This document shows, piece after piece, positions 5,200 through 64,000 of a stretch of DNA of 64,000 nt. The translations under genes were made by a program, and so were the position numbers. The notes below the pieces were generated by a model that did no database searches, was not told where the DNA came from, and saw only the letters and a program-made list of their open reading frames with translations. Within the stretch, counting starts at the first letter, position 1. Each line of letters starts with the position of its first letter. Source of the stretch: Psammoneis japonica (Eukaryota). The stretch spans positions 372,001 to 436,000 of the forward strand of contig QPGO01000045.1 of the NCBI GenBank assembly GCA_008632985.1, given 5' to 3'.

Positions 5200-6039
5200 C
5201 CTGCCTTCGGCTCTTCAACTTGAACGTCACAACTTCAATGCCCTCCACTAATTTCAATTTTCGTGACCGATGATGACTGAACCTTGGCGTCGTGAGCGTC
5301 ATTCTGAACTCTGGCATGGACATGAAAATTGTGGACGCGTGCGATGACGACGGTTGGGTGCAATCACCACAGCCACAACATCTTGACTCTTTGAGCACAC
5401 TGACACGTTCTTCGTGAAGTTTGTTCAAAGCAAGAGTGTCGACGCGCTCCTCATCTTGTTGTTCAATGCCACAGGTGGAAATTCTTGTTGCTTCTCTTTG
5501 GACGCTTTTCAAGATGACTTCTTTCTGTTTGAGCCAGGTGCATCAGAATTCTGTGCGAAAGTGCACCAGCATTGTTCCAAACCCAGGTGCTTCAGGGGTG
5601 AGGAGAAGCAAACAAGACAAGGCGCATCATGCTGTCTCTTGCTTGGAGAAGCCAAAGAAATTTGCTTTGCACAGCTGGCAGGCCTTGTTCTCACATGAGG
5701 CCAGCACAGTCACTCCACTTCTTGTGTGTTTTTCTCACCAAACAAAATGGCTGTGGTGCACTTCTTGCTTCCAGGGGTGACAGTGGCTCAGTGAACAATG
5801 CGCGCCAATGGAGCAGACCACGAAGCTCCTGGCACAACATGGAGTTGGTTGTTCAGCCCCCCAAAAGTGCAGCATTGCAGGCTGGCAGCAGGTGCGGTTG
5901 AGGAGGACCATCCTCATGATCTGCTCACACAGCAGCAGCTGTGCAGACAGGGAGTTTTTAACAGGTGCATGCTCTTCAGAGCACAGGCGCACTGTGACAG
6001 GAGAGAGTGCGTTCAGCACTGGAGCACATTGCAAATTTT

Positions 6040-6099
<60 letters not shown>

Positions 6100-8690
6100 G
6101 CTCAGCACAGCTGGAGCAATTGCAAAATTCATTTGAGGAAAAAAAAAAAAAAAAAACAAAAAAACAGCAGCACAAAAGTGTCAGCACATGAGCCCAAATC
6201 ATTTGCCACCTTGGCATCAAAATTTCCAGGTGATGCAGCAAGGTGGCGATGTGTGTCTTTTAAGAATTGTCCAGACAAAGCATGCGCAGCATTGGCGGGT
6301 TTGGGACAAAGGTTTCTGTGCCTTCTTGTGGTGCTGAAACAACTGTTTGCTCCTCTTTCTGCAGTTTCTCACAGCAGGCACCACATCAAAGCTGTTCTCC
6401 TGCACATTGGCCACGGGCTTCTCACCCAACTCTTCCAAGCCCCAGCCTCAGCTCAGCAATGGCAACCTCAAGAGAATCTGGCAAGGCAATCACAAGCACA
6501 GTCAAATGGCTTGACAAGAAGTGCCCATCCAGAAACATCTGCCAATGGTTTCTTGAGGACATCACAGAACCACTCACAATCTTGTGAATGCTGGGTTCCC
6601 ATCAGCTGAGTGGTGGCAACAAGGTCATTGTCAATGGCAGAGGTGTGCAGTGCCCACACCCAGCATGGTTTTGCACAACCACCTTGTGCTCCCTGGTGAG
6701 GTGGGTGTTTCAAAGGAACTTCCATTGCAGCACTGCAATGATGCTTGGTCCATGGAAGCTCTCAATGGATTGGCCAGTTGCGTCAGTGCTTGAGTTCCAC
6801 AGCACTCTTCAAATCTTCATCTGCTGTCAACATTGTCTGTGAAGGTGGCAGGCATTGGAGCTTGATTGCAATGGGTCCATTTTGGGCCGTCGAAGGTGGC
6901 TGATTCCCCTCTAGAGCTGACAGAGCTGTGACAGCTGACTTTGTCTTTCCTGATCTCCATGGTGTCAAGGACACAACTGTTGCCAAAAACTGATGTCAAC
7001 AGTCCGTGGCAACCTGCTGGCTCATTGTCCTGCCAACATCAGGAACTCATGCTGAGCAAAGTCCACATGACAGGGATCCATGTCTTGGCTGAGAACATGT
7101 GGAAAATCTGTCACTGTTTGATGTGTGTGATCACTTGGGTCATGCATCAGGCACATCTCTTGACCACCACAATGACAAGTTGTTGATTGTGTGTGGGCTT
7201 CATGTGGAAAGACTCTTGCCGGCTGCACAAATGCAAGTGGAGGCACAAAGGTGCCATGCCTTGAGGGCTTGGATTCCACACAACTGATGCTGTGAACTCC
7301 CTGATTGAAAAGCAGTTTGTCATTTCCATCAGCAAGTTCCTGGCCCAGCGGGTCTCTGCACATGGCTTTTGGGAGGTGTGCGGCTTCTCTCGTCATGCAC
7401 CATGTCAGTGTCACCAGAGAATTTGGCACATTGAGTGCAGTTGACACAAACATGTGAGAGGCAGCTGGAAGCACCAACATGCAGGATGCCAGGCACCCTG
7501 CAAAGATCTCAGAGTCACTTTTGGATGACTGGTCCGAGATCATGTCATTCAACTTTTGGGATCAAAATCCAGAGACAGCTTGAGCAACACCCGGGATGCT
7601 GCACATGCCAAACCTGTGAGCAGGAACAACACACTTGTTGTTGCACCCAATGTCCAAGCATCCAGCAGTGCAGTGGATCATTGGCTCCATGGGCGAAACA
7701 GCAGTCAAGCCTGACAATCGCTCGACAGTCGCTCGACATGCTTGATGACCAGCAAACCTGTGCTCATGTTGTGTGGGACCCTCATTCATGTCACTTGGGA
7801 CACTCTGGAAGCTTTGGGTTGTGCGCTCTTTCCTGTGCTGAGAACAAACCAAAATTGCAGCGCAAGCATGAGAAACACATGAGAACAGCAGTGACAACAC
7901 AGAGTGCAGTTGCTTGCCATTCTTCCATTGTTGCTCACCTCTCTTTTCATGCATGCATGCATGCATGCAACGCAGCAACTTGCAATGTGTTCTCCACTGA
8001 TGCTGTTGTCAGGCAGAGCATGTCTGTGCAAGAATGGGTTCCAACACTTGCTGTTGTCATGGTTGATTTTTTGTTTGCTTGCTGTAGAAAGAACAAACAG
8101 GCATCAGACACCAGTTTCCCAGTGTTTTGCTGGCAAAACAATTGTGTGAGAATTGTGCACAATTTCAAAAAAGAGATGAGATTGAATCAAAAATGCAACA
8201 GAGATGCACAAAAATGCAGCACAACACGACAAGCGGAGTCCTGCCCAGGGCTGGAACGCGTCAAGCCCAAGGCTTTCCATTTTTGACATTTGTGGGAATG
8301 AAAATGCATTGGGCATGTTCTTCAATGTCTGCAGAACACTCTCGGGCAAACTGTTGGTGGAGATGCGCTCCAGCCCTGGGCGGGACTTTTTGTGACATTT
8401 GCCCCACAACATTCCATGTGCGAGCTCTGCAGTTTGTGCTCTGGTCAATGGATGCATTTGTCTTCAACATGAAATGAACAAAGCATTGGATGCCGCACAA
8501 AAAGCACGGGGACGACGGAAATCGACTTTTCTGTTGCACTTGTCTGTCTGTCACCCGTTTGTCTCGCAGAATCTGAGAGAAAGCTCCCACACTGCTCACC
8601 TGTTTGATCTGCATGCGCGCAGCTTGGTGCTTCGCCGAAAACATGAACACAGACAATGCACGCACCGCCAACGGCGAAAAGCTTTTTCGC
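5200..8690. other. TpA/CpG-depleted, TpG/CpA-saturated tract A
   Basis: Only a handful of TA dinucleotides. Tyr-free, Cys/His/Gln-rich ORFs overlap in all frames (e.g. 7435-8286, 283 aa, no Tyr). CpG is retained at the edges (~5200-5560, ~8500-8690). Confidence 0.9.
6042..6097 (+). repeat. Poly(T)56 homopolymer, followed by an A18 run at 6139-6156
   Basis: Directly visible. It is flanked by two imperfect copies of TGCGyTCAGCAC..CTGGAGCA..TTGCAAA.TT (6008-6040 and 6097-6133). Confidence 0.95.
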
Positions 8691-8714
8691 CTGCTATTCA
8701 GATACGAAGGACAC

Positions 8715-9230
8715 ATGCAGCGAGCTCCGAACTCCAAGAATTCCTTCCCTCCGCCAAACACACCGCACGCTTCGCGCTCGCCGCGCGCCCCCAATCGCTC
8801 CAACAACGCAAAACACAAAACGAATATAAACTTAAGGAACATCGCAACGATGATGTCAATGCTTCCAAGAGCAGAAGAAGCAATACGGTATATTTGAACC
8901 ACAAGCGAACACACTATACACCAACAATGAGATAACTCGAGTGCTCATGCTGCAGCATTCAGAAGCGGCAGCATTGACGACGAAGCCACCCTCTTTGACC
9001 TGACTTCTCGACTCGAATAGTCGACTCCGCTTGTTCTCGTGGTGGCTGTGGCATGACAGTGGACCCAAATGCAAGTTTCTCCTTGACGATTTGCTCTTGC
9101 TCGAAAAAGACTACAGCAGTGGTTCTGCTCCGTTAAGCCCCAAATTTTGATTGCATATGCTGACACTTGTTGCGAAATGGCAGATTTGGCAATCGAATTG
9201 TGCTTGAAAGAAATATCAAATTTACACGCA
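8715..9230 (+). repeat. Diverged copy 1 of a ~450-500 bp coding-like segment (copy 2 inverted at 24490-24925)
   Basis: Shared blocks CGAGCTCCGAACTCCAAGA, TTCCAAGAGCAGAAGAAGCAATACGG..ACACACTATACACCAACA..GATAACTCGAGTGCT, TTGCTCGAAAAAGACTAC and GGCAATCGAATTG are collinear with the reverse complement of 24490-24925. Confidence 0.85.
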
Positions 9231-9449
9231 CTCTGGTGGCGGCGACGCCGCAACTCAGCAATCGCAACAACATCACATCCCAGCAAACGATGTCGCCAAG
9301 ACCTAAAGCTTAATCTATCCAAGGAACACCCATAAACAAGAGGCGTTCTTCTTCCAGCTTATTTGCGTGACAAGAAAAGCAAGAAAGTACCAAGTCTGCA
9401 TCCTGCAACAACAACACGCCGAGTGAATGATGCAAAATCTCGTCGAGTT

Positions 9450-10075
9450 GTTTGCTTGGTTCCGACCTCAATCGTATGATTCGGTTCTGTATCAATTTGC
9501 AGGATAAGCAATGGAAGAAGCCATACATGCTTTACTGGGAGGTTGTGCCCAAGTATCAGGAACCAACATCCGATCAAGTGTTGGCGGCTGCTCTGCAGGA
9601 GGTCCACCGGTTCAGAGTAAGATGCTTCCTGAAATGGTCTTAGTGTGTAACGCACTTATGAAAGATCTGAATCGCCCGAATGAATACATACAATGCAGCA
9701 TGCTTCGCTTTCTTTGCAAAGTGAAGGATTAGGAGATTCTCGATCTACTCATCCCTTCCATCAAGGCTTGTCTCGAACACCGTCATCAATATGTCCGTAA
9801 GCACGCGGCACCCACCGTATTTCATGCTCACAAGCTGTTTGGAGAGCACTTGATTCTAATGCACCAGAGCTCATGTACGAATTCCTCCAAGCCGAATCAG
9901 ACGTGCCTCCGAGGAGAAACGCTTTTCTCATGCTTTTCAATCAGTCGGAGGAATTGGCCATTCAGTTCTTGGCCCAAAACACGGATGACGTGGGAAAGTA
10001 CAGAGATGGATTCGCCTTGCTTGTTCTGGCACTAGCTCGTAAGGTGTATCGTCGTGATCCTACCCAGAAGACACG
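9450..10075 (+). pseudogene. COPB1: Coatomer subunit beta (COPB1/Sec26) N-terminal fragment
   Basis: [27 protein letters not shown] / [62 protein letters not shown] / RRNAFLMLFNQSEELAIQFL. It has two frameshifts and an in-frame TAG (9730), and is truncated after RRDPTQK. Confidence 0.9.
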
Positions 10076-11078
10076 AGCAGCAGCAGGATACTGGCATGAT
10101 GGTGACTCTTGGTGGACATAGTGACGACGAGGTATCTTCTAGTAGTAGCAGCAGCAGCAGCGACGAAGAGAGCGATTCAGAATCGTCGTCGTCGTCGTCA
10201 TCAAGTAGCGATGACCAGGATACTGGCGGCAGCATTGACATCAAGGTGCAAGAAGACATGGCTCTGGCCATGATTCGAAAATGCTTGTAGCTACCGTGTT
10301 GGACCTAATATGAGAACACGGAAAAACGTCTGATTTCCTTCGTGTAGTAATTTTTTCATGGCAACATAGAAATACTTCGTACGCAAGCTTTACACAATAT
10401 CTGACGACACAGGACGGGAATACAAAATTAAAGTACCACTACACAGTTAAACCCCGGTCCTACTCATATTACTAGACGCCACGGAATACGTAGCAACAAT
10501 GGAGCCGCTATCCTTTGACGTCCGATTCCGTTTTGTCACAATACTACCGTAAATTAATTCATATTTCTCCGCATCCGACATTCAAAGTTATAGGGGGTTG
10601 GTCCATTGACCTCCACGGGTCTCGAGCAGATACGAACAGAGTATTCTTTATGTTGAAAGACCAATCATGCCTGGTACACATTTTGTTTGAAAAAACGTAA
10701 GTTGCGGGGCGGGACCCACGGTTACTTGAACCTTAGTAGTTCAACAAGGACTGTCTGTCGTATCGTTTCAAGTCGGGTGGTCGAACCGGGTAAAGGGCAT
10801 ATTTCTATGTTGTGAAATGAAAACGAAAAACAAGGTCAGTAAACAAGTCTCGCATGAAAAGGGAAAGGAGGCACGAAATTGACTTACATTGGGGGTGCAA
10901 TCGAATGTAACGTGACACAACGAGTGCACCCCATGGTATTATGAATTGCACGACAAAGTCGTGCAATGTTGGCGAGTCTATGATGCGCATAAAAGCTGCA
11001 TTGTACCGTAAAATGGAATCGAGAGATGCCCCCGTGCATGCTCGATTTCCAAGGGTACAAAAGAAGCAGTTAATGAAT

Positions 11079-12928
11079 CTAGCGGCGACTCATGATCCTT
11101 GCGGATCTACGCACGACACGCCCGGTATTCGACGAAAGAAAGACACTGCCAGCGGCTTGACGGAGCCTAGGCGAGCGTCTCAATTGGCCAGTGTGGGCTT
11201 GCTTTTCCTTGTTTCTCACAAGTACAGCATCAGGAACAGCATCCTCCTCTGCCACTGGATTGTTGTCGGCAGCCATATCGTGAACGTCGAAAGTATCGTC
11301 AGGCTCTTCGGCTACAGCTCCAAGAACAACTTCCTCGTCGTGTACAGCAATCACGGGATCGTCCGTAGCGTCAGCAACAGCAGGTTCCTCAACGTCAGCA
11401 ACGGGAACGCCCACCTCCGCATCAACTGGAGCATCGTCAATAGCCACAGCAGGATGGCCCACGGCTTCAACAACAGGTTCCTCTACTGCAGCAACAAGAA
11501 CGCCCACCTCCGCATCGTCTGGTGCGTCGTCAACAGTAGGCTCATTCAAGGCTTCCCAAGGCTCTTCAACAACATCAGGAACTGCTTCCTCCACAGCATT
11601 TAGATTGTTGTCCGTATCCTCAGCCGGTTCCATATCCAAAATTTCCGAGGCATCGTCAGCAATGGGGTTGTTGTCCGTAGCATCAGCGGGTCCAATGGCA
11701 GCAAGAGTCCGAACCCAGCCACGCCAGTGATCACACGAAAGATCAGAGTCCCAGCAATGAATGCTTTCTTCTTGACCCGCATCAAATTCAAGCATCGCCA
11801 CAGCCAACTGCTCATCATTCAATACGGGTATCACACGGGTGTAACGTGCGCGTCGAAGAACTCGTTTGGCAGGCACACGGGTTGGGACTGGAGGAATGTC
11901 ACCAACGTGAAAGTCTTGAGTCATCACTCGGTCGGGTTTCCACCTGACACGCGTTTCTACTGGATCAGCAAGAGCCTCGGCCGGTTCCATGACCGCTGGA
12001 GTCCGCACCCAGCCACGCCAGTGATCATACCTTGGATCCGTACGATACTCACGAATGTATCGGTCTTGCTTCCAGTCAAACTCAAGCAGCGCAGCAGCCA
12101 ATTGCTGATCATTCAGGACGGGAATGACACGGGTGTATCGAGGGATCCGAAGACATCGTGGAGCGGTCACGCCGGTAGGGACTGGAGGAGCATCAGCAAT
12201 GGGTTCGTCAACCGCTGCAACAACCTTGGCCGTTTCAATTGCTGCTGGAGTCCGTACCCAGCCACGCCAGTGATCATACCTTGGATCCGTACGATACTCT
12301 CGAATATATCGGTCTTGTTTCCAGCCGAACTCAAGCAGCGCAGCAGCCAATTGCTGATCATTCAGAGGGGAATGACACGGGTGTATCGAGGTATCCGAAG
12401 ACTTCGTGGAGCGGCCACGCCGGTTGGAACGGGGGGAGCGTCACCAACGTATCGGTTCTTCAGCAACATTCGTTCCGGTTTCCATCTGATGCGCCCACGA
12501 CCAACTAGTTTGCGCTTCAACAGGAGCAACCACGGGAACAGAAACCGCAAGGGAATGTAGATGAAGTAGGAGAACCAATACACGGTCCATACAATCAATG
12601 CAACCGCGAGAGTAACCGCAACAGCATCGCAAGCTCGATCCCAAAGAAGAGAGGTAAGGTTGTCGATTTCCATAATCCGGTAGTACAAGAAATAGACCTT
12701 AGCACCAATCAACTTCAACGAGGAGTGTATGAATATCCCAGCATACAAGGAGAGGAGAGCTTTCCAGATCGCAACGACAACGGGCACGAGAGCGTGAATC
12801 GTGTAGCGAATCGTGTCCCACGCTCCCGAAAGGAAACCGCCAACGATTCGGCCGTGGTTCTGCTTACCGTGAAATAGGCGTAGCAGGAGATTCATAAATT
12901 GAAAGAGTAGTGCAATGTATGCAATCAT
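11079..12928 (-). CDS. ~615-aa protein of unknown function: hydrophobic N-terminus, three ~83-98 aa repeats, acidic region, RRSPRL/RRSAR tail; one -1 frameshift at ~12366
   Basis: ORFs 12362-12928(-) and 11079-12350(-) join if one base is restored: repeat copy 2 reads TTCAGGACGGGAATG where the 12361 copy reads TTCAGAGGGGAATG. Confidence 0.6.
11700..12450 (-). repeat. Three intragenic direct repeats (periods ~249 and ~294 bp)
   Basis: CCAGCCACGCCAGTGATCA recurs at ~11715, ~12009 and ~12258. The encoded unit is RYTRVIPVLNDxQLAxAxLEFD...DHWRGWVRT. Confidence 0.9.
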
Positions 12929-15799
12929 AATGGGGGTAGTAGTATCAATAAAGATAGATTGGTATCAGATATCAGAGTGTTTCAATGCAAGCTAAACTTG
13001 AAATTGTGTGGTGAGCGAGACGGTCGCTCGTTGTTGCGGTTGGCCCATTCGTGAATGCGTAGAAAATGTACTGGAAAGCCCGTAGAAAATCCGACGCAGT
13101 CCCTCACGATTTTCGAATTTCGCGGGATGTTGGCACGTTTGCATTCGGTTAGTCGCAGGCTTCTTGGTAGGAACAATCAGAGACCGAGACTGATGTTGGT
13201 TTTCATTCGTAATGAACATTATCTAGTTATCGCCATTCTGCAATGCTCCGGATCAAGATGTCCTACGTGACGTGGGAGCAACAATGAACAAGACGCGCCA
13301 CGAGGAAAAGCACTGAAAACACACTTCAAGACGCCACCCATGATGACTCGCACCCACTTTCAGTCAACCTCGACTTCCTGAGCTAACTCAATGAGCACTC
13401 CTCCAGTCGATTGTGCCACAGAAGAATGTGCTTGCACCGGTTGAGAAAGAGAGACATTGTGAGCATTTGGGTCGAGCCCAAAACTCGAGTTGACCTCCAG
13501 AGTCAAGCAGGCACCTCCTGGAGCTCCCATCAGACGATCCGCCTCGATTTCCAATGTTAGAGAATGACAAAGTTGGCGCAGTTCTCGGTGGTGCAAGGAC
13601 TTGCTTTTGTCTTTTGTGGCCATTGCAGATGTTTGTCAGATCGGCTCGTGCACAGACACGAGCCATCTTGCTTGATTGTCTCAGAGGGACGGCAAAGCCA
13701 TGCCAAGACACAGCACACAGCATTGGCAGCAATGCTGCAAAGTGTGTCAAATCGGTGCACACGCCTCCACATTGACTGCAGAAGATTTGTTGCATGGCGC
13801 CATCATCTAACCCCCACGACACAGAGTGACACAAGAACACATCCAGCACAACTTGGTCACACCGGACAGAAGATTCAGGTGCTGTTCCCGCAAGTCCAAG
13901 CACGTGATGCTTGCCCACAGCCTGACTGGTTGATGTTGTTGCAATGGCAGGTAAAAGCATTTCTGCCGGGCATGCAACTGAGATGGCAAACAAGTCGATT
14001 GACACCAACATTCGGCGTAAATTGCACAACATGAGGACTCCATCTTTGTCCTGGCTGGTTTCATTTTGCACTGGGCAAAGAAGCTTTCTCTTTGGCAAGG
14101 AGGTGCTTGGCCCCATGCTTGTTGCTTGGAGGCCAAGGCAGAGCAAATTCTGTGTCCCCTGTCATTGCTTGTTTGGGCTCAACTGCAAACATGCAACAAT
14201 GCCGTGCGCACACTGTTCTCCACTTTGCAGCACATGCCTGGTTTTGATGATGACACCTCAGGCAAATGAGCTGGAGAGAAGCTCTTGTCTCACTTGTTGC
14301 TTGGCCACACCTTGAAGAGACAGCTCCGAAAAATCCCAATCATGCAGATGAAACAAGTGTTGGTCATTGACTCCTGTGGATCACATGACAAATGACAGCA
14401 CTTCAAAAGCCATTGGTGCCAAGGCGATTGTGGCTCTGGAGTCAGCTGAGTTGCAGCCACTTGAAAAAGGCAGCCATGCTGCTTTGCCATGCTGTTTCTT
14501 GTGCACTGAAGGGAGGAGCACACAACAAGAAAGAGAATTCCACCCAAGTTGTCACCATGCAGCAACCATGACATCCAGAAGAAATGGACAACAAATTGCT
14601 CTCAGTCCTTGCAACAATTGTTGCACAAAATGCAGTCTTTGCTCTTGTCCCTGACACTCCTTAAGAGATCTGGCACCACTCTCTGGGAAACTTCCACCAT
14701 GCATGCAACCCACTCCTGTTGGCAGCTTTTCTTCCCTGGCAGATGTGTTGGAACAGCACAAAGCCACAAATGGTTTGCAACTGACTTTGCAGATTTGTGC
14801 TGCTGTTGATGAACTGACACCAAACAGATGCTTGGCAAGAGGAAGGAAGTGGCTTGGGGCAACTTTGTTTCCCACCCAATTGTTTGGGCCATTGCTGAAT
14901 TGTTCATTTAGAGGCTGTTGTCAGCCAAGCAGTGGCCAGGATCAAATCATTCTGCTGTCAAGCCTGGTGCAAGTCCACCCACTGCCACTTCATCAGATTG
15001 AAAAAATTTGGGATTTTGTCTTGGATGGTCTTTTTTGGAAGGTGTCATTGCAGCAGGCACCTTGGAGAAGATGCAATGACAAAACCTTCTTTTGTTGCCT
15101 TGCATTTTGGGATGCTTTCAGAATTCTCAATGGCAGCTGCAAACAACAAGGCTGCATGCTTTCATCTCATTGATGTTGTGGTGCATTGCTGGATCCAGGC
15201 AACTCAACACCACCTCCACTTCATTGGCCAGAAAGTCTCAGGGCTTGTGTGCAAGTCAAAAAGCAGTGTTCAGACAACTGTGCCATGTGGGGCTGCTTTT
15301 GATGATGCCATGACTGCATGGTGCAGCAATGGATCTGCCATCACCAGAGAGATCTGGTTGACTCAGTGTCTCCTCTTTTGACAGGTGTTGAGATGCCACC
15401 CGGCCATTTGGTTGCAAGAACAACCATTCTTGTGCCTGCCTTCAAGAACTCCCACATGGCAAAGGCCCCTCCAACAATTGCAATTTGGCGAGGCAATGCA
15501 TTCACAAAACTTTTGCATGACTTGTTCAGCTTGCAAGACATGGCAACGGGGCTCAGATCAATGATGGGCTCAACTTCTGGGACAACCTGATTGCAGCAGT
15601 GCAACAGCTCCATTGATTGCAACACCTGACATGCGTTGAAACCTCATGCTCCAATGGCGCGACTTTGCACCCAAGTCATTCTCCATGGCTGTGACTCTGC
15701 AGCATCATTCCAATCACCCAAGCATGCTCAAGGTTGGCGGTGGCAAAACAAGTGCAAAAAGAATGTCTGAAGGCACCATCAAATGAGTGCTCATTGACA

Positions 15800-24470: not shown

Positions 24471-24489
24471 TGTGGAAATCTCTTGAAGA

Positions 24490-50382: not shown

Positions 50383-50433
50383 AGGAACCCGGATCCAACA
50401 TTTTTTTCAAAAAAATGTTGGATCCGGGTTCCT
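50383..50433. repeat. Perfect inverted repeat, 25-bp arms and 1-nt spacer
   Basis: AGGAACCCGGATCCAACATTTTTTT-C-AAAAAAATGTTGGATCCGGGTTCCT. Confidence 0.97.
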
Positions 50434-51131: not shown

Positions 51132-51399
51132 CTGCATTGTCGCTCCAGTTGCAGAGAACGATTAACAGTATCTTTCTTGGTTTTCCCGCACTTCACCGTG
51201 TAAATATCTGCCGAGTGGCAATGCACGCCCTTTTCGCGATGAAACTATGCTCTCATTTCAAAGTACAATGAGCTCTACCTTCTTATTCTTTCTACTTGTC
51301 TATTCAGGACATCATTCTTTGTAGCTTCTGACACTGGTACCGGTAGAGGCGATTCGATGGCAGGTTTGGAGATCACTTTGTCACAAGAGAATGCAAGGC

Positions 51400-52085: not shown

Positions 52086-52639
52086 CCACGATGAGTCACC
52101 GCTGGATTTGGTTCGTTGTCGATACGAATAACTGCTGACTTGACTCTTGGGACTGGCTTGACCATCCTCGACGTAGGACAGATTGGAGGGTCGAGCCGAA
52201 CTGGGTGGTGCTTGTCGTCGTTGTGGCTTGTTGGACTTTTTCAGTGGAGTCCAAAAGGAACTATCCAAATTCCTATTCTTGAAAGCAGCAGCATTCGACG
52301 ACGAACCCATGGATGTATTGACGGCAAGAGACGTGTTGGGACCCGTGCTTTTGAAATAGTTTCGTGGTCGAGTTGTCATTCTGGCATAACGATATTCAAC
52401 GGCAAAGAGGCAACACACAATCACGGTACCCTTGACAATGGCAATAATAACTCCCGTTGATAGCCACTGCTCGAGGAAGAAGAATTGTCACCATTGTTTT
52501 CAATATTGTTTGTTCGTCTTGTGTCACAACGGAAATGACGGTGGAAAAGTTATCATTGCCCGATTGCTGTAAGAGCGAAATAGAGGCTGGACTTTGCACG
52601 GAAAATACATTTCGTAGAGACTACTGTAATACAAACCCT

Positions 52640-53990: not shown

Positions 53991-54138
53991 CTACTCTCCT
54001 TCTTCTTCGCCGTCGTCACTATCTTGAGCACGTGCTTGACGCTCTGGCTCACGCTGCTGCTACCTGCTACAGTATTTTCCTCTCCAAAATAGCGACAGCG
54101 TGGATTGATTTGCAACGTCATGATCAGTGCCATGATCC

Positions 54139-55600: not shown

Positions 55601-58600
55601 TCTCACTCTGGGGGCATGGCATTTGGAAAATCTGTGCAGGCCAGTTTGATGGGCCCTTCAGAAATCTTTGCATTTTGGTGCAAAAACGCACACAATGAAG
55701 AGATTTGGGCTAAAAATGAAGACAGCAGCCAGCAAAATTGACTTGCACAAATCTTGCAAACAAGAGTTCTTGGTGCTGCCACTCTTTGTGGCGGTGCTGT
55801 GGGGGGACTCCACCATGAAAAGCATTGTTTCTTGCCAGCCCCATCTTTCTTTCATTTGCAGATGGTGATTGTTCTCTGGGTTGTTTGCTGTGGTCTGACT
55901 CTGTGGTCTGCACATTGCTGCTGAAGAAGGGAAGAGCCTTCAGCGGGTGAGAGAATCCACTTGGGTTGTGGCCAATGTGCCTCCTCTTCCTGTGGATCCC
56001 AGTGTGCCAGCACAGCTTGTCTGTGCACGAGACAAGTGCACAGGATGCAAGGACATGTGTGATGCTGTGACTTTAATTTTTCTTTGTGTGTGCAGCACTT
56101 TGCTGTGTGACTGAGTTGCCTTTGAGCATGCTTTTGTGAGAAAAAACTGGTGTGAGGCAGGTGGAGTGTGCTGGATGTTAAAAGGCTGCCCCACGGTCCT
56201 GATTGTGCACTCATCTCCTTGCTCTTCCCAGTGTCAATGAATCTGGCCTTTTTTCTCTTTGTTGCCAGAGAAGAAGCAACTGTCTTTTGAAAAATGAAAG
56301 CAGCACACTGTTGAGAAGAAAGATTCCCTGGTGCTGGTTGCAGCACATGAGGACGATTTGCACACGTTGTGTTGGCTGAGCAAATTCTGTGTCCCTCAGC
56401 AATGCCTTTCTCTTTGCTGAGACCAAGCCTTGTTGGGCCCTTTGTCTGAGTGAGTTGATCAAGTTGCCATTTTGTGAGCATGTGGGTGTGACATCCCCCT
56501 GGCCCTCTTTGTTGAGAACAAGACTGACATGTTGGCTCTCTTTGACTTCCTTTGACTTGTTGAATGTCAAAAATTCAAACGAGGTCTCAAGCAAAGCAGT
56601 TGATGACATTTGTGCCACAGCTGCATCCACATTGAGCACCTTGGTGAAACAAAGGTTGCTTGCAGAAGCTGTGATCACCTCAATGTCTGTCCTGCATGGT
56701 TGCAGTGCTGGCTGCAGCTTGCCTTGCTGAAGATGGGCAGGGCTCTGTGGCAATGCACAAGGACAAGGATGATGACAAACCCTCAACACATCAGCAAGAG
56801 TGCCAAGCACCAGGTTTGCACAATGCATGGTTGAGTCAAATGCAGCTGTGAATTCAAAAGAAGATGTGACCTTGAAAGCAACGCACCTGGCTCCACACAA
56901 GGCAAAAAAAATGCTCACATTGTCTTGCTTCATGGGAAGAATCAAGCTTGAACAACACAAAATGGAAGACAATGAGCTTGTTGCAGGTGCACCCAATGTG
57001 AAAATGCTCTGTGCTGCAGCCCAGCTTGACATGGTTTTGAAGATGCCACACTCTTGTTTGGGTGGCTCCAATGCTCTGAGCCAGACAGCTGTCAAAGGTG
57101 AACTTCAAGCCATTTTGTTGATGCAGAATGCTTGCAAAAATGACCCCGTGGAGGTGCTCAAGTTTGCTGGACACTTGAGTGCCAAATGGCGTGTTTGGGG
57201 AAGAACAGGAACATGGTTGTTGGCCCTCATTGGAAGCAGATGTCCTCTGCATTGAAGAAGAGGTGGCATTTGCACGGGGTCAACAAAGTGCAAGAAGAGA
57301 GCTGTTGCAGCCACAGAAAAAAGTGGCCATTGCATTGTGTGTGCCTTCAAAACAATCTTGGTTTTGTGTGGCCAATGCGGGTGTTGGCGCTGCTGCCAAT
57401 GAGGAAACTGTTGATGTTCCTGAAACTGCCAATGCAGGAGACAAGAACATGTGGATGAAAAAGCTTCCAAAATTGACAACAATGTGCCTGAGAAAGAGAA
57501 AGCAAAAGCCCTGACCAGCTTGCAAAGAAGCAAGCCTGAAAAGCAAAGGCAGTTCCTTGACGATCACAGTCTGGAGACAGCTGTGTGCATGTTCCTTTCA
57601 CAGCCACTTTTGTTCTCCAAAAAGTGCCACAAAACCACTCTCAAAGATCATTCTGCCCCTTGTGGGGGCAACTGATGCTGTGGTGTTGCTGTCTGCCTCT
57701 CCCAAATTGCAACAAGGCTGTGGTGGTGGTGTTTCTCACCAAGGTTGTGCCATTTGTGATGACTTGAGCCCTCTGGCTTTGATGGCACCATCTTGCCAGC
57801 AGAACTTGCAAAGTTTTGCATTCTGTTTTGAAGGGGTTCTCAACACCCAGAGGTGCCCTCACGGTGTGAACAAGTTGCCAAAATCCACGGGATTGGCCAA
57901 CAACCATTTTGACAGCACTGTCATTTTGGGAATCAAAGATGTTTCTGACAGCGGCTGGAGCAGGTCCAATTGGCTCTGCCTCAGGGTGTCCATTCTTAGC
58001 TTGCAAAAGATGATCAGCAATTTTGTGGTGGTTGAAGTGTGGCACCCCAGTGTGATCAAAGCAATGGCGGTCTTTTTACCTGCAACTTGTTTCCCCTCAT
58101 TTTTCTCACCTGCACAAAGGACTTGGCCCATGATGTCCCATTGCACTGAACTCAGGAATTGGCCATCATGCCCTTGGCTCACCTTGTTCAGCAGCACAAC
58201 TTTGATCACAAGCTCTGCTTGCAGGAAAAGACTGGTGCTTGTTTGAACGCTGTTGCCACAAGCACAGTTTTCATTTCTTGTCATTTGTGATCTGAAACAA
58301 AGACCCATTGGCAAGGGCTGGTGCTCATCTGCAAGACTTTGTTGGGGCTTCAGTCATGGTGTCAAGGCCTGGGGAAAGGCTCCAAGAAAAGTGACTGGCT
58401 TTGTTTCCACCCCCAGATGGGCTGAGAAAGAAGGTGGGGCCAGGCAAATCAAGAAGAGAATCAGCTTGCTGGAGTGAAACCCATTGACTCCCCAGAGCAC
58501 ATGAAAGCCAGAGGCAGAAGCAGACATGCTTTAGAGCCAGCACTTTGACTTGTGTGTCAGTGCTGAATCTCTTGTTCTTCACAGAAAGGTTTCTCAGGCA

Positions 58601-61600
58601 TGTCAAACTCACCTTTTGGAAGCACAAACCACCGGTGGCTTTGTCATTGACATTCTTCTGTTGCTTTGCCATTTCAGTGGAACACTTGTTGCATGGCACT
58701 CCCCAACCAACAACAAGCAAACACAAAAAATTTACAAAAGAAGAGTGTGCAGGCAATCAGCACCTGTTCAGTCCAGCACATGTCAAAAAATGTCAAGCAC
58801 TGGTGTGCATCACAGCAAGTGCCTCATCTTGTGCAAAACCACAGCCAACTGCATCAAAACAGCAATGACATTGCATGGCAAGCACTGCAGCTGCCATCAC
58901 AGTCCTCCACTGACATGTGCACAAAATGAGTTGCACGCAAGCAAAGATTGCTGTGCTGCACTTTCAGACTTTCTGCATCTGTTGGGAAAAGTTTCAACAA
59001 GTCAAAAAATGCAGTTGAAATGACGGTTGCTCAGATGGTGCAATGTTGCCTCAAAAGCACCATGAAAAGACAGCCCTCAAGCTTTTGTGCATTTTCAGAG
59101 TGAAAAATGTCATTAAAAATGCAAGGGTGAGGACTGCAGAGACACAACAAGAAAACTTGCAAGTCAGTTGCACGCTTGATCAGTGCTCCCTGCAAGTGAT
59201 GACTTGCTGCACCACTTCACTCGTGCAGCAGAAGAAACCCCAAACCCTGCATTCCACCACCAGCAGGATCTGCTTGACAAGCTTTTGCTGCTTCACAGAC
59301 AAACAATGCTGTCTGCTTTTCAACAGCTGTGGCCTGATGGGTCAAGCAAACAGGCAACTTCCCACAGTCAAAGACACAGGAGTGACATGGACTCCAGGCA
59401 AGAGACATGTGCTTGGTTTGCCCCGACCTCCAGACTCAACTGGCAACACCTGCATTGCACATTTCAACAATGCAAAAGCATCAAAGCAATGAGAGACAAC
59501 ACTTTGTGCTCCAGCAAAATGAGTTGTAGAACACCAAACAAGAGCAAACAATTGGGGCTGTGGGAAGGGTGAGCCATGCACCCTTGGGTGCCAAGGCATT
59601 CCAGCTTGGTGAACAACAACATCATGCCAGACAACAAGTTGTTTTTGACAAGATTTTGCTTGAGTCATGACCGTTGCTAAATTTCTCAATCACTGTCATT
59701 TTTGTGCACCTTCACAGAATTGGCACCATGGTTTTGCATGTGGAACATTCTTTGGAACTTGGCACCCAAAGTCATTGCCAATTGCTGTGCAAGCTTTACA
59801 ACAACCATCAAACTGCACAAACCATGCAGGTTGGCTTTGATGGTTCCTTCCTGGCACGGCTGCTCTAGATTTGAGTGGCAAGTGCTCACTCCAGTGAGTT
59901 GCACTCCTTCAAAACCAAAGAAAGCGATACGTTTTGAGTCATTTGTTGTTCCGACACCTGGTTTCGGCTTGACAGCTCCTCTCCACAATCCAGTCCACTC
60001 TTGTTTGAGCATTCCACAATTTTGTCCACAACTTGTGGCAATGAGCTGGGTGCATTTGGATGGGTGCTCTTGGCCAATCGTTTTCGTTTCTCACCATTGA
60101 GACTGGCAACATGCTCTGCATTCTTTTCCATGTGTGCATTGCGGCACAATTCTACGCAAGCGCCCGTGGGATTGTCCTGTGTGAGAGTGTGGTGGTGTGC
60201 CAACCTCCTCGGGCACTTTGGGATGTCAGGCAGTTGCGCCAATGACAGAGAAACCAAAAGGCATCGGAGGGGATGCTCTGTTGTGTCCACGTCCGGGGGA
60301 GCGGCGCCGCCATGGTGTCACATCTCTTTGCATTTCTTTCCCGATGTCAGCATGTTTTCTGCGTTAAATTCTGCACGATGCAGCAATTTTCAAGTCAGTC
60401 ATTTCAGTGCAAGTTTCGCGCACAATTCCACGCGTTTGGCCAGAATTTCAAGTCGACGACCGTGCAAGGTTTGTCCTCTTGTTCTTCTCACCAACATGCT
60501 TCCTTTGAGTTTTCTTTCCAACACACTGCAACATGTGATGGACATTCTACGGTGTTCCAAAGTGGGTTGTCACAAGTCTTCCAAGTGGTTCGCAGTTCCA
60601 AGTCTTGGTGTTGCTTCTTCATGCTCTTCGATGTTGCAACTTCAGCACACAATTTCTGTGCAATTCTACGCATGACGGAAATTTCATCTGACAACTCCGA
60701 TCATCATTTCCTTTTCCTTCGTTGGGGTCCGTGTTGGACTTTCTTGGGTGTTTTTCATCCCAGGAATCCCTCTCACATCTCTTCAAGCATGTCATCTTCG
60801 GAGACAGACACGAGTTTAGTTTTTCTGCAGTGTTCATTTTGGTGTCTCCCAAGTGGTGTGGCTGGGCTTGTCCATTCTTCGAGGCACAGCAACTGTGGTT
60901 GCCGTGTGACAAGCATCCGGTTGGTTGCCATTCTGACTTAAAACAAACAGCCTCTTTCTGATGATGTGTTGACGGCATTGCCTTCGGACAATGTGTCAAT
61001 GGCATTGTCTTTCTGACAACATTTGACGGTGTTCAAATTGTCCCTGCCGCCCTTTGTGGGTGCTGGGGAACGTGGGTCTGCTGTGGTCGGTGTTGGTGTG
61101 GGCGGCAGCGAGGCAGCGGCAAAACAGATTTCGAGTTTTTTTTTCATGTGCGCATCGCAACAGCCGTCAAAGCCCACATGCGGTGCATCTGTTTCAACCA
61201 TGAGTCTGTCCAGTGGTGTCAGCCCCTCTGCCAGGCAAGCCTGCACCTCGGCGCAATTGTCGCTGGACTCTCTGCAAACAAATCCAGAAATTGAGACAAA
61301 GTGCCCCCACTTGATGCGCTCACGACATTCCTCTCTCGCATTCCAGCAAAACAATGGATCAATGCTGGAACCTGCGCAGAAGCCAAGCACTCTGTTGTTT
61401 CATCAAATGCAAGCCTTTCATGAACAAACAGCAGGAGATTCAATTCAGATGCTAACTCAACTTGGGCTCGAAACCAAGGCAGTTGATTCTCAAGTGGTGG
61501 AAAGCCTTTACTTGCATCCAGACCACATTCGCCCACAGCTGCCATGGTCTCCTTGTTTTCTTGTGGCAATCTCCTTGCAATTTCCAACTTTTCATTTGCA

Positions 61601-64000
61601 GGCAGTCCCTCATCGTCCACATGACAAGGATGCACACCGACCGTTGTCTTTGTGGGAATCATGGCATTTGTTCAGGAGAGTTTTTCCAAGCCGACTTGGG
61701 CCTCGGCTGGAGTGGAAGACGGCAAGAGCACAGCCACAATGTTGGATTCTTTTACAGCGTCTTGTTGTAAAATGTCAAAAGTGGATTTTTTGTCATCTTG
61801 CGGTTCTGACTGAAAAGAAATGAGATCTTCATGCCACAAGTTGCAGTCCACGTCAATCAACCGGGGTGATGGGGATGGCTGGATTGCTGACATGATGGTG
61901 TGAGCATGAACAATTCTGCCAATGCGGTGTCTCATTGCAGTGCTTGACATCAGCCTTGTGGAGCCAGCTGCTGCAGTCAATGTTGGCACAAAGGAGAGTC
62001 TCATTGGCAAGAAGCGAATTGCCAGCAGCGCAACAACAGCTTGGCTCTGTGCCCCCCTTTAAAAGCAGATCAGTGAACAGCAGATGCCGCTCAGCGCATT
62101 GAAGATGACAAGGAGAGCATCATGGCAGACACCATGACAGCTGACAGCACACAGCATGGCCTCAGAGGCCGCAGCATTCTGCACCAAAGGCGACAGCCAG
62201 GCAGCGACCGTCGGACCCGCGGTGGACTTGTTTGAAAAAGAAGCTCAGACCTCCAAGAAGAGAAAAACAAGCTTTGCAAAACTTGCTTGTGCTGTGTTTG
62301 CACTTGTGCAAACACTGCATTGGGCTGCATGCTGTGGATTCAGGCACAGCAGATCAGTTTGAAGCAAGAGCTTGGTCTGGCTGGCCACCCACATCCTTGA
62401 GAGGTGAGCATCCCTGGCAAAAATGTTGGTGTGGTGCTGGCCCAAGCAACTTTTGCCAGAGGCTGCTGACACAGGAAAACAAGATCAGTGCCATGTGTTT
62501 TTGTTCTCAAACTGGCAGCACCCCCACATGGCTGCAAACTTGTTCATTTTTCAACCCAGCAGGGGCAGTGGTGCACATTCTTGAGCAACCATGACTTTGT
62601 GGCAGCAAGTCGTGGTTTGACATTCTCTCTGAACCCACCAGCAATTTGCCCCGACAAGCTCTTGAAATGTTGCTGCCCTTGTTGTGTGCTTTCATGTGTC
62701 AACAACAAAGTCAGAGAAGAGGCTTCAGTGGTGAGCACAGCCCCAGCAACTGCCGGGCAGCATCAACTCACACAACATGGAAAGGGGTGGGTTCCAGTCC
62801 CAGGTGGGATGATGTTTTGTGACATTTGCCCCGCAGAATTCTGCGTGCATCCCCATTGCTGAGGCAGCCCACACTTGCTCCACAATGTCCCACCACAACA
62901 TTGCATGCTAGCGCTGCGCAAGCTTGATCCTCATCTCTGTGAGAAAGCTGCTGGCTGTCAAACTTGTTGAGCTTTTGCTTGTTTTGCTCTGCACTTTTAA
63001 GACTGACAAAACACTGGATTCATGCTGATGCAAAAGTGGCTGGCTGCAGCTTTGCTTGTTGTGAGAAAAGACATGTTGGTTGTCGCCAATGACAAAAGAT
63101 CAGATCTGCAAAAGTGTGGGCCAAGGCTGTGGTTCAATGGAAAAAACAGAAACAACAAGCCCTCCACACAGCAACAAAACATGTGTCTGTGAGGCCAAAC
63201 AATGCCACAAAAAGAAAACTTGACTTTGGGCGGGGGTTGAAAAAGCTTTTTCTGTGACCTCTGCACCACCAAAGAGACCTGCCAGAGAAACAGGGAGTCC
63301 CAAGCAGCATGGCCATGAAACACCAAATGTCCACAATTGTGTGTCTTTTGCGCAGCTTGCAGCTTGTCTTCAATGGAGCGCACCAGCCCCACAGACACAT
63401 GAAAGCAGTTTTTCTTCTCTGGTCTCAGCTCCTGCGCCAGGTGCTTTGGTCATGCAACATGTGCATGAAGAAGAGCTTTAAAAGGACCTCAAGCTTGCCA
63501 CCAAAAGTCAATCTGTTGGTTCAGTGCCCCTCAGAAGAATGGCTCCAATGACACCCACAACAAAGCAGTGCATGTCAGCTGCTCACTGAGTGGAGGAAAG
63601 CACCAAGGAGAGACTGGCTCCTGTTTGTGCCAGCCATTGCCATGCAAGTGTGGAGCAAGCTGGGATTTTGTCTAAAAAACCAACTGTTGTCCCTTTTCTC
63701 CCCACAACTTCTTTTGTTTCAAAATGGCAGTGGAAGCCAAAAAGCCATCAGAGAAGCCAAGTGGCCACAGACACTCTGTGAAAATGCCTGCACTTTTCTC
63801 CTGTCTGCTGCCTCACTCTGGGGTTGGGAAGGAGCATTTCACAGCTTTGGTGAATCTGCATCTCCACTCCAGATGCTCTCATGATCTGCTTTGCTGGCAC
63901 CAAATTTCTCTTGGCCCAGGAGCAGCACAATTTTGGTGGTCTCCAGTGCATGATGTGGCGTGGCATGATCGGGCCATCACTGCTGTCTGCCTGTCTGGCA
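54540..64000. other. TpA-depleted tract E (CpG largely retained in ~59900-62230)
   Basis: Tyr-free ORFs (e.g. 56211-57095, 294 aa). Residual TA is mostly TTAA/CTAA/TTAG/CTAG. Confidence 0.9.
61120..61890 (-). pseudogene. tatD: TatD-family DNase, hypermutated and frameshifted
   Basis: LIDVDCNL, TTVGVHPCHV, AAVGECGLDASKGFPPLENQLPWFRAQVELA, LFVHERLAF, LIHCFAG, GHFVSISGFVC and PLDRLMVETDAPHVGF are spread over three frames. Confidence 0.88.

Follow-up and report, generated by a model that had tools for sequence, protein, structure and literature searches.

The window, as we call the whole 64-kb stretch of diatom DNA that was analysed here, raises the question of what has removed the dinucleotides TA and CG from some of its parts and left both of them at normal levels in the DNA next to these parts. 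Here we mapped the affected blocks, followed the fate of the lost dinucleotides in repeats and gene remnants, and compared the pattern with the known hypermutation systems. We consider it probable that sharply bounded domains of the diatom nuclear genome have undergone TpA-targeted adenine deamination which is superimposed on the decay of 5-methyl-CpG.

The first-pass annotation of this DNA knew of no description of such a process in algae, and in this it has been overtaken by a preprint on TpA hypermutation of integrated giant-virus/virophage DNA in Bigelowiella natans (Mettrop et al., bioRxiv 10.64898/2026.01.13.699255). According to the main text of the preprint, in two viral hypermutable regions of the mutation-accumulation lines 230 of 231 mutations were A-to-G or T-to-C, all on TpA, with a rate of about 1000 times background, and ADAT2 was proposed as a candidate. 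For diatoms, our literature search found no report of TpA loss or RIP-like mutation.

Distribution and edges of the blocks

Window-wide dinucleotide analysis gave five blocks, without strand, of about 32 kb in total, which is about half of the window. Their coordinates were taken from a base-pair map of TA and CG positions. Block 1 (5250-8694) is TA-less, with weaker CG loss near its margins (5250-5600 and 8200-8694). In block 2 (13385-19653) TA and CG are almost absent, CG persisting at 13385-13900. Block 3 (28150-37024) is the largest of those lying wholly within the window and contains the longest TA-free run, 1848 bp at 33326-35174; at the TA rate found outside, the chance of even one TA-free kilobase is 1.3e-19. 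Block 4 (38800-43534) has its left edge inside a pseudogene and block 5 (54533-64000) continues past the end of the window.

For the pooled comparison, 32,200 bp of block DNA was set against the 31,800 bp outside in the same window. The observed/expected ratio (o/e) of TpA is about 0.04 in the blocks vs 0.63 in the flanks and that of CpG about 0.2 vs 0.99, with CpA/TpG at about 1.8 in the blocks, and the mononucleotide composition is equal inside and outside. The respective counts, blocks vs outside, are 87 vs 1383 for TA, 393 vs 1761 for CG, 3715 vs 2300 for CA and 3600 vs 2349 for TG. Sliding-window values of TpA, CpG and TpG/CpA within the window carry the same contrast: the 1-kb windows of the blocks range over 0.00-0.10 for TpA, 0.04-0.25 for CpG and about 1.7-2.2 for TG/CA, and those of the neighbouring DNA over 0.45-0.84 for TpA and about 0.8-1.3 for CpG. 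When the thresholds of the B. natans preprint are applied, 32 of the 64 1-kb windows pass.

The block edges are sharp to 200 bp or less, as judged from TA and CG counts per 200 bp. The first-pass annotation had described five tracts covering about half of the window, and our mapped edges fall close to its limits. Its statement that the tracts are both TA-less and CG-poor is correct for the blocks overall and fails for 60001-62000, a sub-region of block 5 where TA o/e is 0.08 and half of the CG is kept (o/e 0.59). CG is also still present a few hundred bp inside the block margins, where TA is already absent. No segment of the window combines strong CG loss with retained TA, and CpG loss is always nested within TpA loss. 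The loss of TA and the loss of CG are separable processes, as the region of 60-62 kb and the margins lose TA and keep CG.

Survival of TA depends on the flanking bases. Counting of 4-mers gave a single RTAY inside the blocks vs 445 outside, 22 vs 744 for RTAR/YTAY and 64 vs 193 for YTAR, so that the surviving TA are enriched at YTAR with an odds ratio of 17 (p 6e-33). The best survivors are Y-T-A-R sites, TTAA above all, and the R-T-A-Y sites are gone.

Conversion of TA and CG into TG and CA

TA and CG together lose 2664 steps in the blocks, TG and CA together gain 2666, and pyrimidine-purine steps as a whole stay level, at 7795 in the blocks vs 7793 in the DNA outside. The loss of TA and CG is a conversion to TG and CA, and the base composition stays flat while both of them vanish because they share these two products. 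AA shows no depletion, its o/e being 1.26 inside the blocks vs 1.10 outside, and the A:T-to-G:C change is restricted to TpA as judged from end states rather than from observed new mutations. Runs tests on the order of TG and CA in blocks 1 to 5 (z = +0.78, +0.46, -0.56, +1.56 and -0.29) detected no clustering. The A-to-G change strikes both strands about equally, as the first-pass annotation had proposed for TpA. TA/(TG+CA) in the blocks is 87/7315; if the blocks are at or before equilibrium, the forward rate would exceed the back rate by a factor of about 80 or more.

The conversion can be followed directly in repeats that have one copy in normal DNA and the other in a block, all located on the plus strand by BLAST with purine/pyrimidine (RY) recoding. 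Repeat 1, of about 330 bp, has its normal-composition copy at 4088-4390 and its converted copy at 5382-5721, at the start of block 1; the pair aligns with a score of 243 vs a maximum of 73 in 20 shuffles. Repeat 2 has its normal-composition copy at 27239-27590 and its converted copy inside block 3 at 28731-29061; this pair carries BLAST E-values on a two-letter alphabet, which are uncalibrated and stand without a shuffle control. Over the two pairs, 0 of 20 TA are kept (8 became TG, 6 CA and 6 other) and 5 of 37 CG are kept (15 became CA, 13 TG and 4 other). In 7 of 41 TG and 4 of 53 CA of the normal copy the converted copy has the other product, which means either that the ‘normal’ copy departs from the ancestral sequence or that the alignment contains errors. 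The possibility that the pairs belong to larger tandem duplications was rejected, since extended alignments score within the shuffle range and both pairs are hence short dispersed repeats.

A 194-bp tandem array of five copies lies inside block 3 (33702-34672, plus strand). Among its 28 YR-conserved steps 6 are mixtures of TG and CA between the copies and 1 more mixes CA, CG and TG, with the analogous double mix in 0 of 26 RY steps; the copies changed in place and independently after duplication. The dispersed internal repeats of block 4 (40815-42685, plus strand; self-BLAST and RY-recoded BLAST) are 77-78% identical in four letters and 90-94% after purine/pyrimidine recoding, so their copies differ mostly by transitions. 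Plain self-BLAST of the window revealed no similarity between different blocks.

Gene remnants and gene content

Two remnants of host-type genes are recognisable in the blocks. A pseudogene of a TatD-type DNase (59931-61902, minus strand; Pfam TatD_DNase, E 8.1e-20; best hits in diatoms) survives as three pieces, each in a frame of its own. It is broken by an in-frame TGA (61674-61672) and by one frameshift close to 61340, and some 1 kb separates pieces two and three. The pieces were detected by hmmsearch with a profile of 58 diatom homologues at E 5.5e-79, 2.9e-27 and 1.3e-18. From these homologues 53 of 189 conserved columns differ, and one TA/CG-to-TG/CA step explains 23 of the 53 changes, as compared with 9, 10 and 12 for control dinucleotide models. 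The eight entries with a Tyr consensus (seven distinct columns) are read as His in five cases and as Cys, Arg and Phe in one each, with no Tyr left, and five codon changes are CG-to-TG. As to which flank matters on the deaminated strand, the evidence is divided: changes of TAY to CAY prevail in the TatD pseudogene (5 His vs 1 Cys), stable-flank counts lean weakly the opposite way, and the paralogue events are too few to weigh on either side.

The second remnant is the C-terminal part of a melibiase/glycosidase-like gene (38363-39301, minus strand), mapped by tblastn and hmmsearch, which continues in collinear order from block 4 over its edge into normal DNA. The block contains profile positions 36-157 (39283-38909); positions 251-293 and 310-358 (38699-38363), with two in-frame stops, fall in the normal DNA. 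Its library search gave 26 matches at E <= 0.001 (best E 1.0e-21), and 7 of the 8 matches that were scanned contain Pfam Melibiase. A block edge thus crosses one single pseudogene, and the process is regional, as had been claimed. The repeat pair, the TatD pseudogene, the tandem array and the glycosidase-like pseudogene are four in-window tests, and by them the changes are transitions made in situ. The first-pass reading that TpA and CpG were both turned into TpG/CpA by transitions agrees with the constant pyrimidine-purine total, the paralogues, the pseudogenes and the array; the alignments to paralogues and homologues which it suggested display TA-to-TG/CA directly in the repeat pairs and the TatD pseudogene.

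All 270 block ORFs of at least 70 aa (148 + 122) were scanned with Pfam. The TatD remnant alone was returned, plus sub-threshold noise, and no transposase, reverse transcriptase, viral or mobile-element domain was found; the transposase that the first-pass annotation had placed in the tracts has no such domain among these ORFs. A coding-like purine/pyrimidine period-3 signal is restricted in the blocks to 38.4-39.9 kb and 61.2-62.4 kb. The greater part of the block DNA defies identification, and some of it may be of foreign origin. The normal-composition DNA holds dead gene pieces as well (MCM, MetH, aldo-keto reductase and methyltransferase), and so junk status is not what selects a block; for this DNA the Pfam scan covered 129 of 175 ORFs of at least 70 aa, the 46 others being mostly the shortest, and that of the MCM region 42 of 49 ORFs of at least 30 aa. 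An ORF of 638 aa (45236-47149) gave no homologue beyond a weak atlas lead to diatoms. No tRNA genes or Rfam families were found in the 64-kb window, an exact 24-mer of the high-copy repeat matched 0 environmental loci, and the repeat protein P0245 had no relative among 405 pattern matches.

Read support

Contigs from the public sequencing run X1 (longest 315 kb, single-copy depth about 50-56) cover all 30 bins of 4001-24000 and carry block sequence at about 99% identity. One contig of 1026 bp lies on 6176-7036 with 6 other letters and 2 gaps. The summed contig depth is 5658 in the bin 8003-8669 of block 1, 150-260 in block 2, which has contigs in every bin, and about 1300-1800 over the high-copy repeat in normal DNA (10.7-13.3 kb). 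Among the 40 of 1993 X1 differences that were listed, position 5249, where the window has its final TA ahead of block 1, shows TA-to-CA and position 6913 shows TA-to-TG. Three runs are available, from one sample of one study, and the X1 sample may be that of the assembly itself.

Proposed mechanism and alternatives

The pattern is best accounted for by two transition processes which have run in place almost to completion. One is a TpA-specific A:T-to-G:C change, in which every TA site goes to TG or CA on its own, whichever strand is struck, and it bears the signature that was measured directly in the mutation-accumulation lines of B. natans. Its likeliest chemistry is an enzymatic deamination of adenine to hypoxanthine in DNA, read as G, by a candidate enzyme that would require T before A and would work better where a purine precedes the T and a pyrimidine follows the A. 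The other would be the ordinary decay of methylated CpG to TpG/CpA, slower and over a slightly smaller area, with 5mC as the presumed cause of the CpG loss. Targeting would be by position, probably through a chromatin-like domain, and not by the identity of an inserted element. More tentatively, and with a little over a third of our belief, we suggest that diatoms may possess a DNA adenine deaminase system which is guided by chromatin, prefers R-T-A-Y and, acting alongside methyl-CpG decay, irreversibly erases silenced DNA. It would then be an old, SAR-wide genome-editing defence and a natural A-to-G editor of chromosomal dsDNA, an extension proposed in view of B. natans, a rhizarian in which this TpA signature is at work. 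Candidates for such an enzyme would include deaminase-SAM-Tudor proteins (compare PMC3239186, 2011); Tudor domains are known to read methylated histones or arginines.

The pattern could also reflect age instead of targeting, if a historical burst of the same chemistry converted a much larger region and the normal segments are younger DNA (insertions, duplications or mosaics of gene fragments) that arrived once the process had ended. The normal segments do hold the high-copy repeat (10.7-13.3 kb) and patchworks of gene fragments, and most block DNA is without period-3 signal or recognisable domains, as expected of old DNA. We nevertheless hold this unlikely, as a single collinear pseudogene spans the edge of block 4, TA stops abruptly and CG recovers gradually over a few hundred bp at several edges, resembling the margin of a domain and not an insertion junction, and the X1 contigs differ at 5249 and 6913, among the differences listed. 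The damaged base may instead be thymine: a TET/JBP-type oxidase would make 5-hydroxymethyl- or 5-formyl-uracil at TpA in silenced DNA, which pairs with G and gives T-to-C. Every count fits this equally well, because T-to-C and A-to-G are indistinguishable at a palindromic TA; 5hmU prefers TpA in dinoflagellates and 5-formyluracil mispairs with G. The sole experimental precedent proposes adenine deamination, a proposal itself unproven in the preprint's main text, and we regard thymine oxidation as improbable.

Another mechanism offered by the first-pass annotation follows the model of somatic hypermutation: T:G mismatches left by deaminated 5mC would set off error-prone repair of the Pol eta type (WA-to-WG). 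It would suit the coincidence of TA and CG loss across most of the blocks. Pol eta prefers WA, but AA, the other WA motif, is undepleted, the TA loss is more complete and reaches past the CG loss (margins and 60-62 kb), and TpA mutations are reported in B. natans by a preprint whose main text leaves CpG unmentioned, so this reading fits poorly and is very improbable. We give slightly less credit still to a base-calling or assembly artefact, in which T and G are miscalls of heavily modified bases (5mC, 6mA or the like). Here the supporting run may be the assembly's own data, yet its k-mer contigs carry the block sequence, strand-specific miscalls would presumably not strip a consensus of TA and CG alike, a frameshift, an in-frame stop and a 1-kb interruption mark the TatD remnant as truly dead and, as the preprint reports, Illumina reads of B. 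natans yielded the same mutations. Least probable is RNA editing before integration, that is, A-to-I changes of the ADAR/ADAT type on retroelement transcripts which were then copied to DNA. ADAR/ADAT enzymes usually favour an A that follows U (cited in bioRxiv 10.64898/2026.01.13.699255), but the runs tests on the five blocks gave no strand bias or clustering of TG vs CA, the array copies were hit independently after duplication, host-type pseudogenes are affected and a block edge passes through one of them, the Pfam scan of the 270 block ORFs returned no reverse transcriptase, and AA is untouched.

Comparison with known systems

The deamination reading has its closest likeness in B. natans, where the change is likewise a regional, sharply local A:T-to-G:C at TpA giving TpG or CpA according to strand, the 1-kb windows poor in TpA and rich in CpA+TpG are clustered, and many affected sequences are unannotatable, in the preprint's own account. 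The differences are also considerable. B. natans is a chlorarachniophyte (Rhizaria) and the present host a diatom (stramenopile); the long-term trace reported there is mild, with a Rho TpA of 0.45 in the viral region, against near saturation at about 0.04 here. The targets described there are viral, whereas those of the diatom are pseudogenes of host type and repeats, and the 270 block ORFs gave no viral or mobile-element domain. The rate was measured directly in B. natans and the diatom blocks are known from end-state sequence. The terms CpG, diatom, flanking and trinucleotide are absent from the preprint's main text, and its supplementary tables may hold flank data.

Fungal RIP resembles the present case as an irreversible in-place transition hypermutation with a dinucleotide rule and sharp local extent. 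RIP is however a C-to-T change, mostly at CpA, and raises TpA; here the direction is opposite, TpA being destroyed (o/e about 0.04) and CpA/TpG being the product (about 1.8). RIP is triggered by duplication and mutates both duplicates, while in our two pairs, whose copies are just about 330 bp long, conversion has affected one member and spared its partner, and pseudogene DNA present in a single copy has been struck as well. The CpG half of the pattern is like the decay of methylated CpG to TpG/CpA in vertebrate repeats and diatom transposable elements (CG 393 vs 1761; 28 of 37 paralogue CG to TG/CA), and the CpG o/e of about 0.15-0.25 in the blocks resembles that of methylated vertebrate DNA; this decay leaves TpA untouched. 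ADAR hyper-editing of dsRNA shares the A-to-G change and the preferred U before the edited A. ADAR is metazoan, acts on RNA, edits also after A and should erode AA. In the present blocks AA is intact, and the change took place in situ and struck each of the two DNA strands independently.

ADAT2/ADAT3 and TadA are tRNA A34 deaminases whose target A follows U (U33-A34), and to our knowledge no genomic, domain-restricted and near-saturating activity has been described for them. Deamination of both A and C in DNA by a single enzyme has been reported, and this would fit the dual TA and CG signature. Trypanosoma and amphioxus ADAT2 can act on DNA, as cited in the B. natans preprint (bioRxiv 10.64898/2026.01.13.699255; amphioxus, PMC10354150).

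Value of the data

The provided analysis makes the diatom a further instance of a very recently described TpA hypermutation, so far measured in one unrelated alga. The window gives an end state without precedent in the sole experimental study, with near saturation, a flank rule, nested CpG decay and edges running through pre-existing sequence.

TpA o/e below 0.1 with CpA/TpG near 2 can be used as a genome-wide marker for such domains. The conversion of TA and CG explains the failed annotation in half of such regions, and gene finding is affected since TAA/TAG stops and Tyr codons are gone and long spurious ORFs arise.

If diatoms and a chlorarachniophyte both have a dedicated process that clears TpA from selected chromosome domains, targeted A-to-G hypermutation of DNA would be a recurring eukaryotic mechanism beside RIP and the APOBEC-type C-to-T systems. 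Discovery of the candidate enzyme would provide a natural editor of adenine in chromosomal DNA.

Distribution and limits of the blocks

Over the whole window the observed/expected (o/e) ratio was 0.34 for TpA, 0.59 for CpG and about 1.5 for TG/CA, and these values are the mean of two distinct states. When calculated in 1-kb windows, five blocks gave 0.00–0.10 for TpA, 0.04–0.25 for CpG and 1.7–2.2 for TG/CA, whereas the normal DNA between them gave 0.45–0.84 for TpA and near 1 for CpG, which confirms the TA- and CG-poor tracts described in the first-pass annotation. The base-pair map placed the TA-less blocks at ~5250–8694 (block 1), ~13385–19653 (block 2), ~28150–37024 (block 3), ~38800–43534 (block 4) and ~54533–64000 (block 5, which continues past the window end). 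Counts per 200 bp showed that the state switches at the block edges within one or two bins. The longest run without TA was 1848 bp, and a TA-free kilobase has a probability of 1.3e-19 at the TA rate found outside the blocks. The thresholds that define such windows in Bigelowiella natans select 32 of the 64 1-kb windows. G+C content and skews were the same in blocks and normal DNA.

The blocks have lost TAA and TAG on both strands and TGA is the sole remaining stop; stop-to-stop frames of at least 70 aa number 270 in blocks vs 175 in normal DNA, the longest being 331 aa. Gene finders will over-call open reading frames (ORFs) in such blocks, and genuine coding remnants there are without Tyr. A 62-base T run was also noted inside block 1 (6036–6097), where reads are apparently cut at 6028–6175.

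Conversion of TA and CG

Dinucleotide counts were pooled for 32,200 bp of blocks and 31,800 bp of normal DNA. TA fell to 87 in blocks vs 1383 in normal DNA and CG to 393 vs 1761, while CA rose to 3715 vs 2300 and TG to 3600 vs 2349; all pyrimidine-purine steps together numbered 7795 vs 7793. The loss of TA and CG (−2664) is balanced by the gain of TG and CA (+2666), and as transitions leave the purine/pyrimidine pattern unchanged, this balance matches the prediction of pure transitions at TA and CG steps. The loss is conversion and not avoidance. The base composition stays flat because the G+C gained in one conversion is offset by that lost in the other. Changes of TAY to TGY and of RTA to RCA bring smaller shifts with them (GC o/e 0.99 in normal DNA and 1.33 in blocks, AT 0.94 and 0.78). 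In blocks TA/(TG+CA) was 0.012 and CG/(TG+CA) 0.054; these step counts suggest a forward/back rate ratio of at least about 80 for TA and about 19 for CG, the latter being a value typical of methylated CpG.

Recoding of the window into purines and pyrimidines, which is invariant under transitions, revealed two short repeats, each pairing a normal-DNA copy with a block copy, namely 4088–4390 vs 5382–5721 and 27239–27590 vs 28731–29061. The first pair scored 243 against a maximum of 73 among 20 shuffles, this control being for that pair only. Over both pairs, none of the 20 TA of the normal copies was kept in the converted copies (8 TG, 6 CA, 6 other) and 5 of 37 CG were kept (15 CA, 13 TG, 4 other). 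Normal-copy TG and CA appeared as the opposite product in 7 of 41 and 4 of 53 cases respectively, which means either that the normal copies represent the ancestor imperfectly or that the alignment contains errors. In a tandem array of five 194-bp copies (33702–34672), 6 of 28 conserved pyrimidine-purine steps varied between TG and CA from copy to copy, and a further step was CA/CG/TG; no analogous double change was found at the 26 conserved purine-pyrimidine steps of the array. These mixtures imply that the copies were hit independently, after the array was formed. Repeats within blocks had a four-letter identity of 77–79%, which became 85–94% after recoding. The first-pass annotation's proposal that TA and CG were both converted to TG/CA, by transitions affecting either strand, is backed by four independent tests within the window, namely the repeat pairs, the tandem array and the two pseudogenes described below.

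Runs tests did not distinguish the succession of TG and CA in blocks 1–5 from a random one (z +0.78, +0.46, −0.56, +1.56 and −0.29), with no sign of one-strand bursts in any of the five. The flanks of the surviving TA were far from random: RTAY numbered 1 in blocks and 445 in normal DNA, RTAR or YTAY 22 and 744, and YTAR 64 and 193, giving survival of about 0.2%, 3% and 33%. YTAR thus makes up 64 of 87 survivors vs 193 of 1383 TA in normal DNA (odds ratio 17, p 6e-33), the surviving sites being TTAA (30), CTAA (14), TTAG (13) and CTAG (7). The gradient would fit two flanks acting additively on each strand. For the flank on the deaminated strand, the TatD pseudogene (described below) favours TAY to CAY and stable-flank counts lean weakly the opposite way, the paralogue events being few. 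Surviving CG were enriched in GCGC (61 in blocks vs 74 outside).

Read support

Contigs assembled from X1, a public sequencing run of one sample, covered 30 of 30 bins of 4001–24000, blocks included, and one of 1026 bp differed from 6176–7036 by 6 differences and 2 gaps. The 1384 contigs at ≥80% identity (225 at ≥99%, 297 at 95–99%, 403 at 90–95% and 459 below 90%) are spread in a way that points to diverged paralogues of the region elsewhere in the genome. Differences from the window were mostly transitions (344, 330, 304 and 319 per kind vs 70–91 per transversion). Among the 40 differences listed were TA to CA at 5249 and TA to TG at 6913; 8197, 8205 and 16777 are CA/TG in the window and CG in contigs, and 16760 is CA in the window and TA in contigs. 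X1, which may be the assembly's own sample, lends support, short of independent proof, to the reality of the block sequence. Metagenome contigs were scanned twice, with an exact 24-mer of the high-copy repeat (0 loci) and with the repeat's protein (405 pattern matches, none related), and neither scan turned up a further copy.

The highest summed X1 depth of any bin (5658) was at 8003–8669, inside the margin of block 1, where TA is lost and CG kept; at 8197 and 8205, the CA or TG of the window is replaced by CG in contigs with at least half of the aligned depth. Should all members of the repeat family prove TA-poor, amplification may have followed the conversion of one copy.

Pseudogenes and content of the two states

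A TatD-type DNase remnant was the sole real Pfam match among the 270 block ORFs. A profile of 58 diatom homologues aligned to it piecewise, in three segments that lie in three frames; the remnant contains an in-frame TGA, a frameshift and an interruption of ~1 kb. At its conserved columns 136 of 189 entries were identical; of the 53 mismatches, one TG/CA-to-TA/CG step reverses 23, three control dinucleotide models reverse 9, 10 and 12, and any single transition accounts for 32. At the eight entries with a Tyr consensus (from seven columns, one of them represented twice) the residue is His in five and Cys, Arg or Phe in one each, and never Tyr. Its named matches (up to 57% identity) are all diatoms save one, a transcriptome record under another organism's name. 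A methionine-synthase fragment was 83–86% identical to diatoms, 74–77% to Aureococcus and 60–68% to green algae and dinoflagellates. Judged by sequence, the DNA comes from a diatom or else from a very close relative.

A large melibiase/glycosidase-like gene has left its C-terminal remnant at the second coding-like spot in the blocks (38.4–39.9 kb), with 26 library matches at E ≤0.001 (best 1.0e-21) and a Melibiase domain in 7 of 8 matches scanned. The remnant runs collinearly on the minus strand (39283–38363) across the edge of block 4 (~38800): profile positions 36–157 lie inside the block, and positions 251–293 and 310–358, with two in-frame stops, lie in normal DNA. The edge thus cuts one ancestral sequence, which favours targeting by position and argues against an element-borne property.

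The transposase that the first-pass annotation placed in the tracts was not found: Pfam detected no transposase, reverse transcriptase or viral domain among the 270 block ORFs. Over most of the block length, even the purine/pyrimidine-recoded sequence lacks a period-3 signal. Dead pieces of MCM, methionine synthase, aldo-keto reductase and methyltransferase genes also lie in normal DNA, as does a high-copy repeat, so junk or repeat status does not decide the conversion state.

Within normal-composition DNA, a minus-strand mosaic at 47961–54000 holds aldo-keto reductase pieces (47961–48558), residues ~417–640 only of methionine synthase with a frame change (51446–52085), and MCM OB and P-loop pieces (52823–53990), the rest of that gene being absent; its appearance is that of gene pieces captured or in decay and not of working genes. 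The high-copy segment (10671–13338; summed X1 depth about 1300–1800 vs ~50–56 for single-copy contigs) has the window's strongest purine/pyrimidine period-3 signal. Its minus-strand 453-aa ORF (11082–12440) has three ~45-residue motif copies and an acidic tail; it matches no Pfam family, and metagenome contigs yielded no relative. An intact plus-strand 638-aa ORF (45236–47149) encodes a Ser/Thr/Pro-rich protein which by eye looks like a single-pass membrane protein; a search of 5.8 billion proteins gave no sequence homologue, and a language model gave a weak lead to a diatom cluster. A plus-strand GPR180/TMEM145-type transmembrane domain (840–1394, E 1.1e-08) heads a run of overlapping plus-strand ORFs in different frames to ~4000, which could represent either the exons of one gene or one more decayed gene.

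Mechanism and comparison with known systems

At 5250–5600, 8200–8694 and 13385–13900 TA ends abruptly and CG thins over a few hundred bp, and the 60–62 kb segment, in which the TatD remnant can still be recognised, has TpA o/e 0.08 and CpG 0.59; strong CG loss with normal TA occurs nowhere in the window. The TpA process is thus faster or wider than CpG decay, and is independent of it. Error-prone repair by Pol eta is disfavoured by the reach of TA loss beyond CG loss and by AA, the other WA motif, which is not depleted (o/e 1.26 in blocks vs 1.10 outside). Fungal RIP runs in the opposite direction, as TpA is lost here, and fails two defining tests including that of the repeat pairs; ADAR-type editing of retro-copies fails on the strand order in the runs tests and on the independently hit array copies. 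Most probably, adenine at TpA is deaminated in the DNA of targeted domains, with methyl-CpG decay acting alongside; our statements on the chemistry, on the signal for targeting, on activity at the present day and on a role in defence are inferences.

A process of this kind has already been described, in a 2026 preprint on B. natans (Mettrop et al., bioRxiv 10.64898/2026.01.13.699255). In its mutation-accumulation lines, 231 of 302 nuclear single-nucleotide mutations fell in integrated giant-virus and virophage regions, 230 of the 231 being A-to-G or T-to-C and stated to be all on TpA, at about 1000 times the background rate in some lines only. Across that genome, windows poor in TpA and rich in CpA/TpG form 124 clusters, and an ADAT2-type DNA adenine deaminase is the authors' proposal; Iyer et al. 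(2011, PMC3239186) offer a lead for the candidate enzyme. The words CpG, diatom, flanking and trinucleotide are absent from the main text of the preprint. The core TpA signature is common to both, but the lineages differ, and the TpA ratio is 0.04 here, near saturation, against 0.45 in B. natans. Set against that main text, host-type remnants and repeats as targets, CpG decay, the flank rule and an edge through a pseudogene belong to the window. The literature search found no diatom report of such mutation. What is new here is the process in diatoms, with features hitherto unreported.
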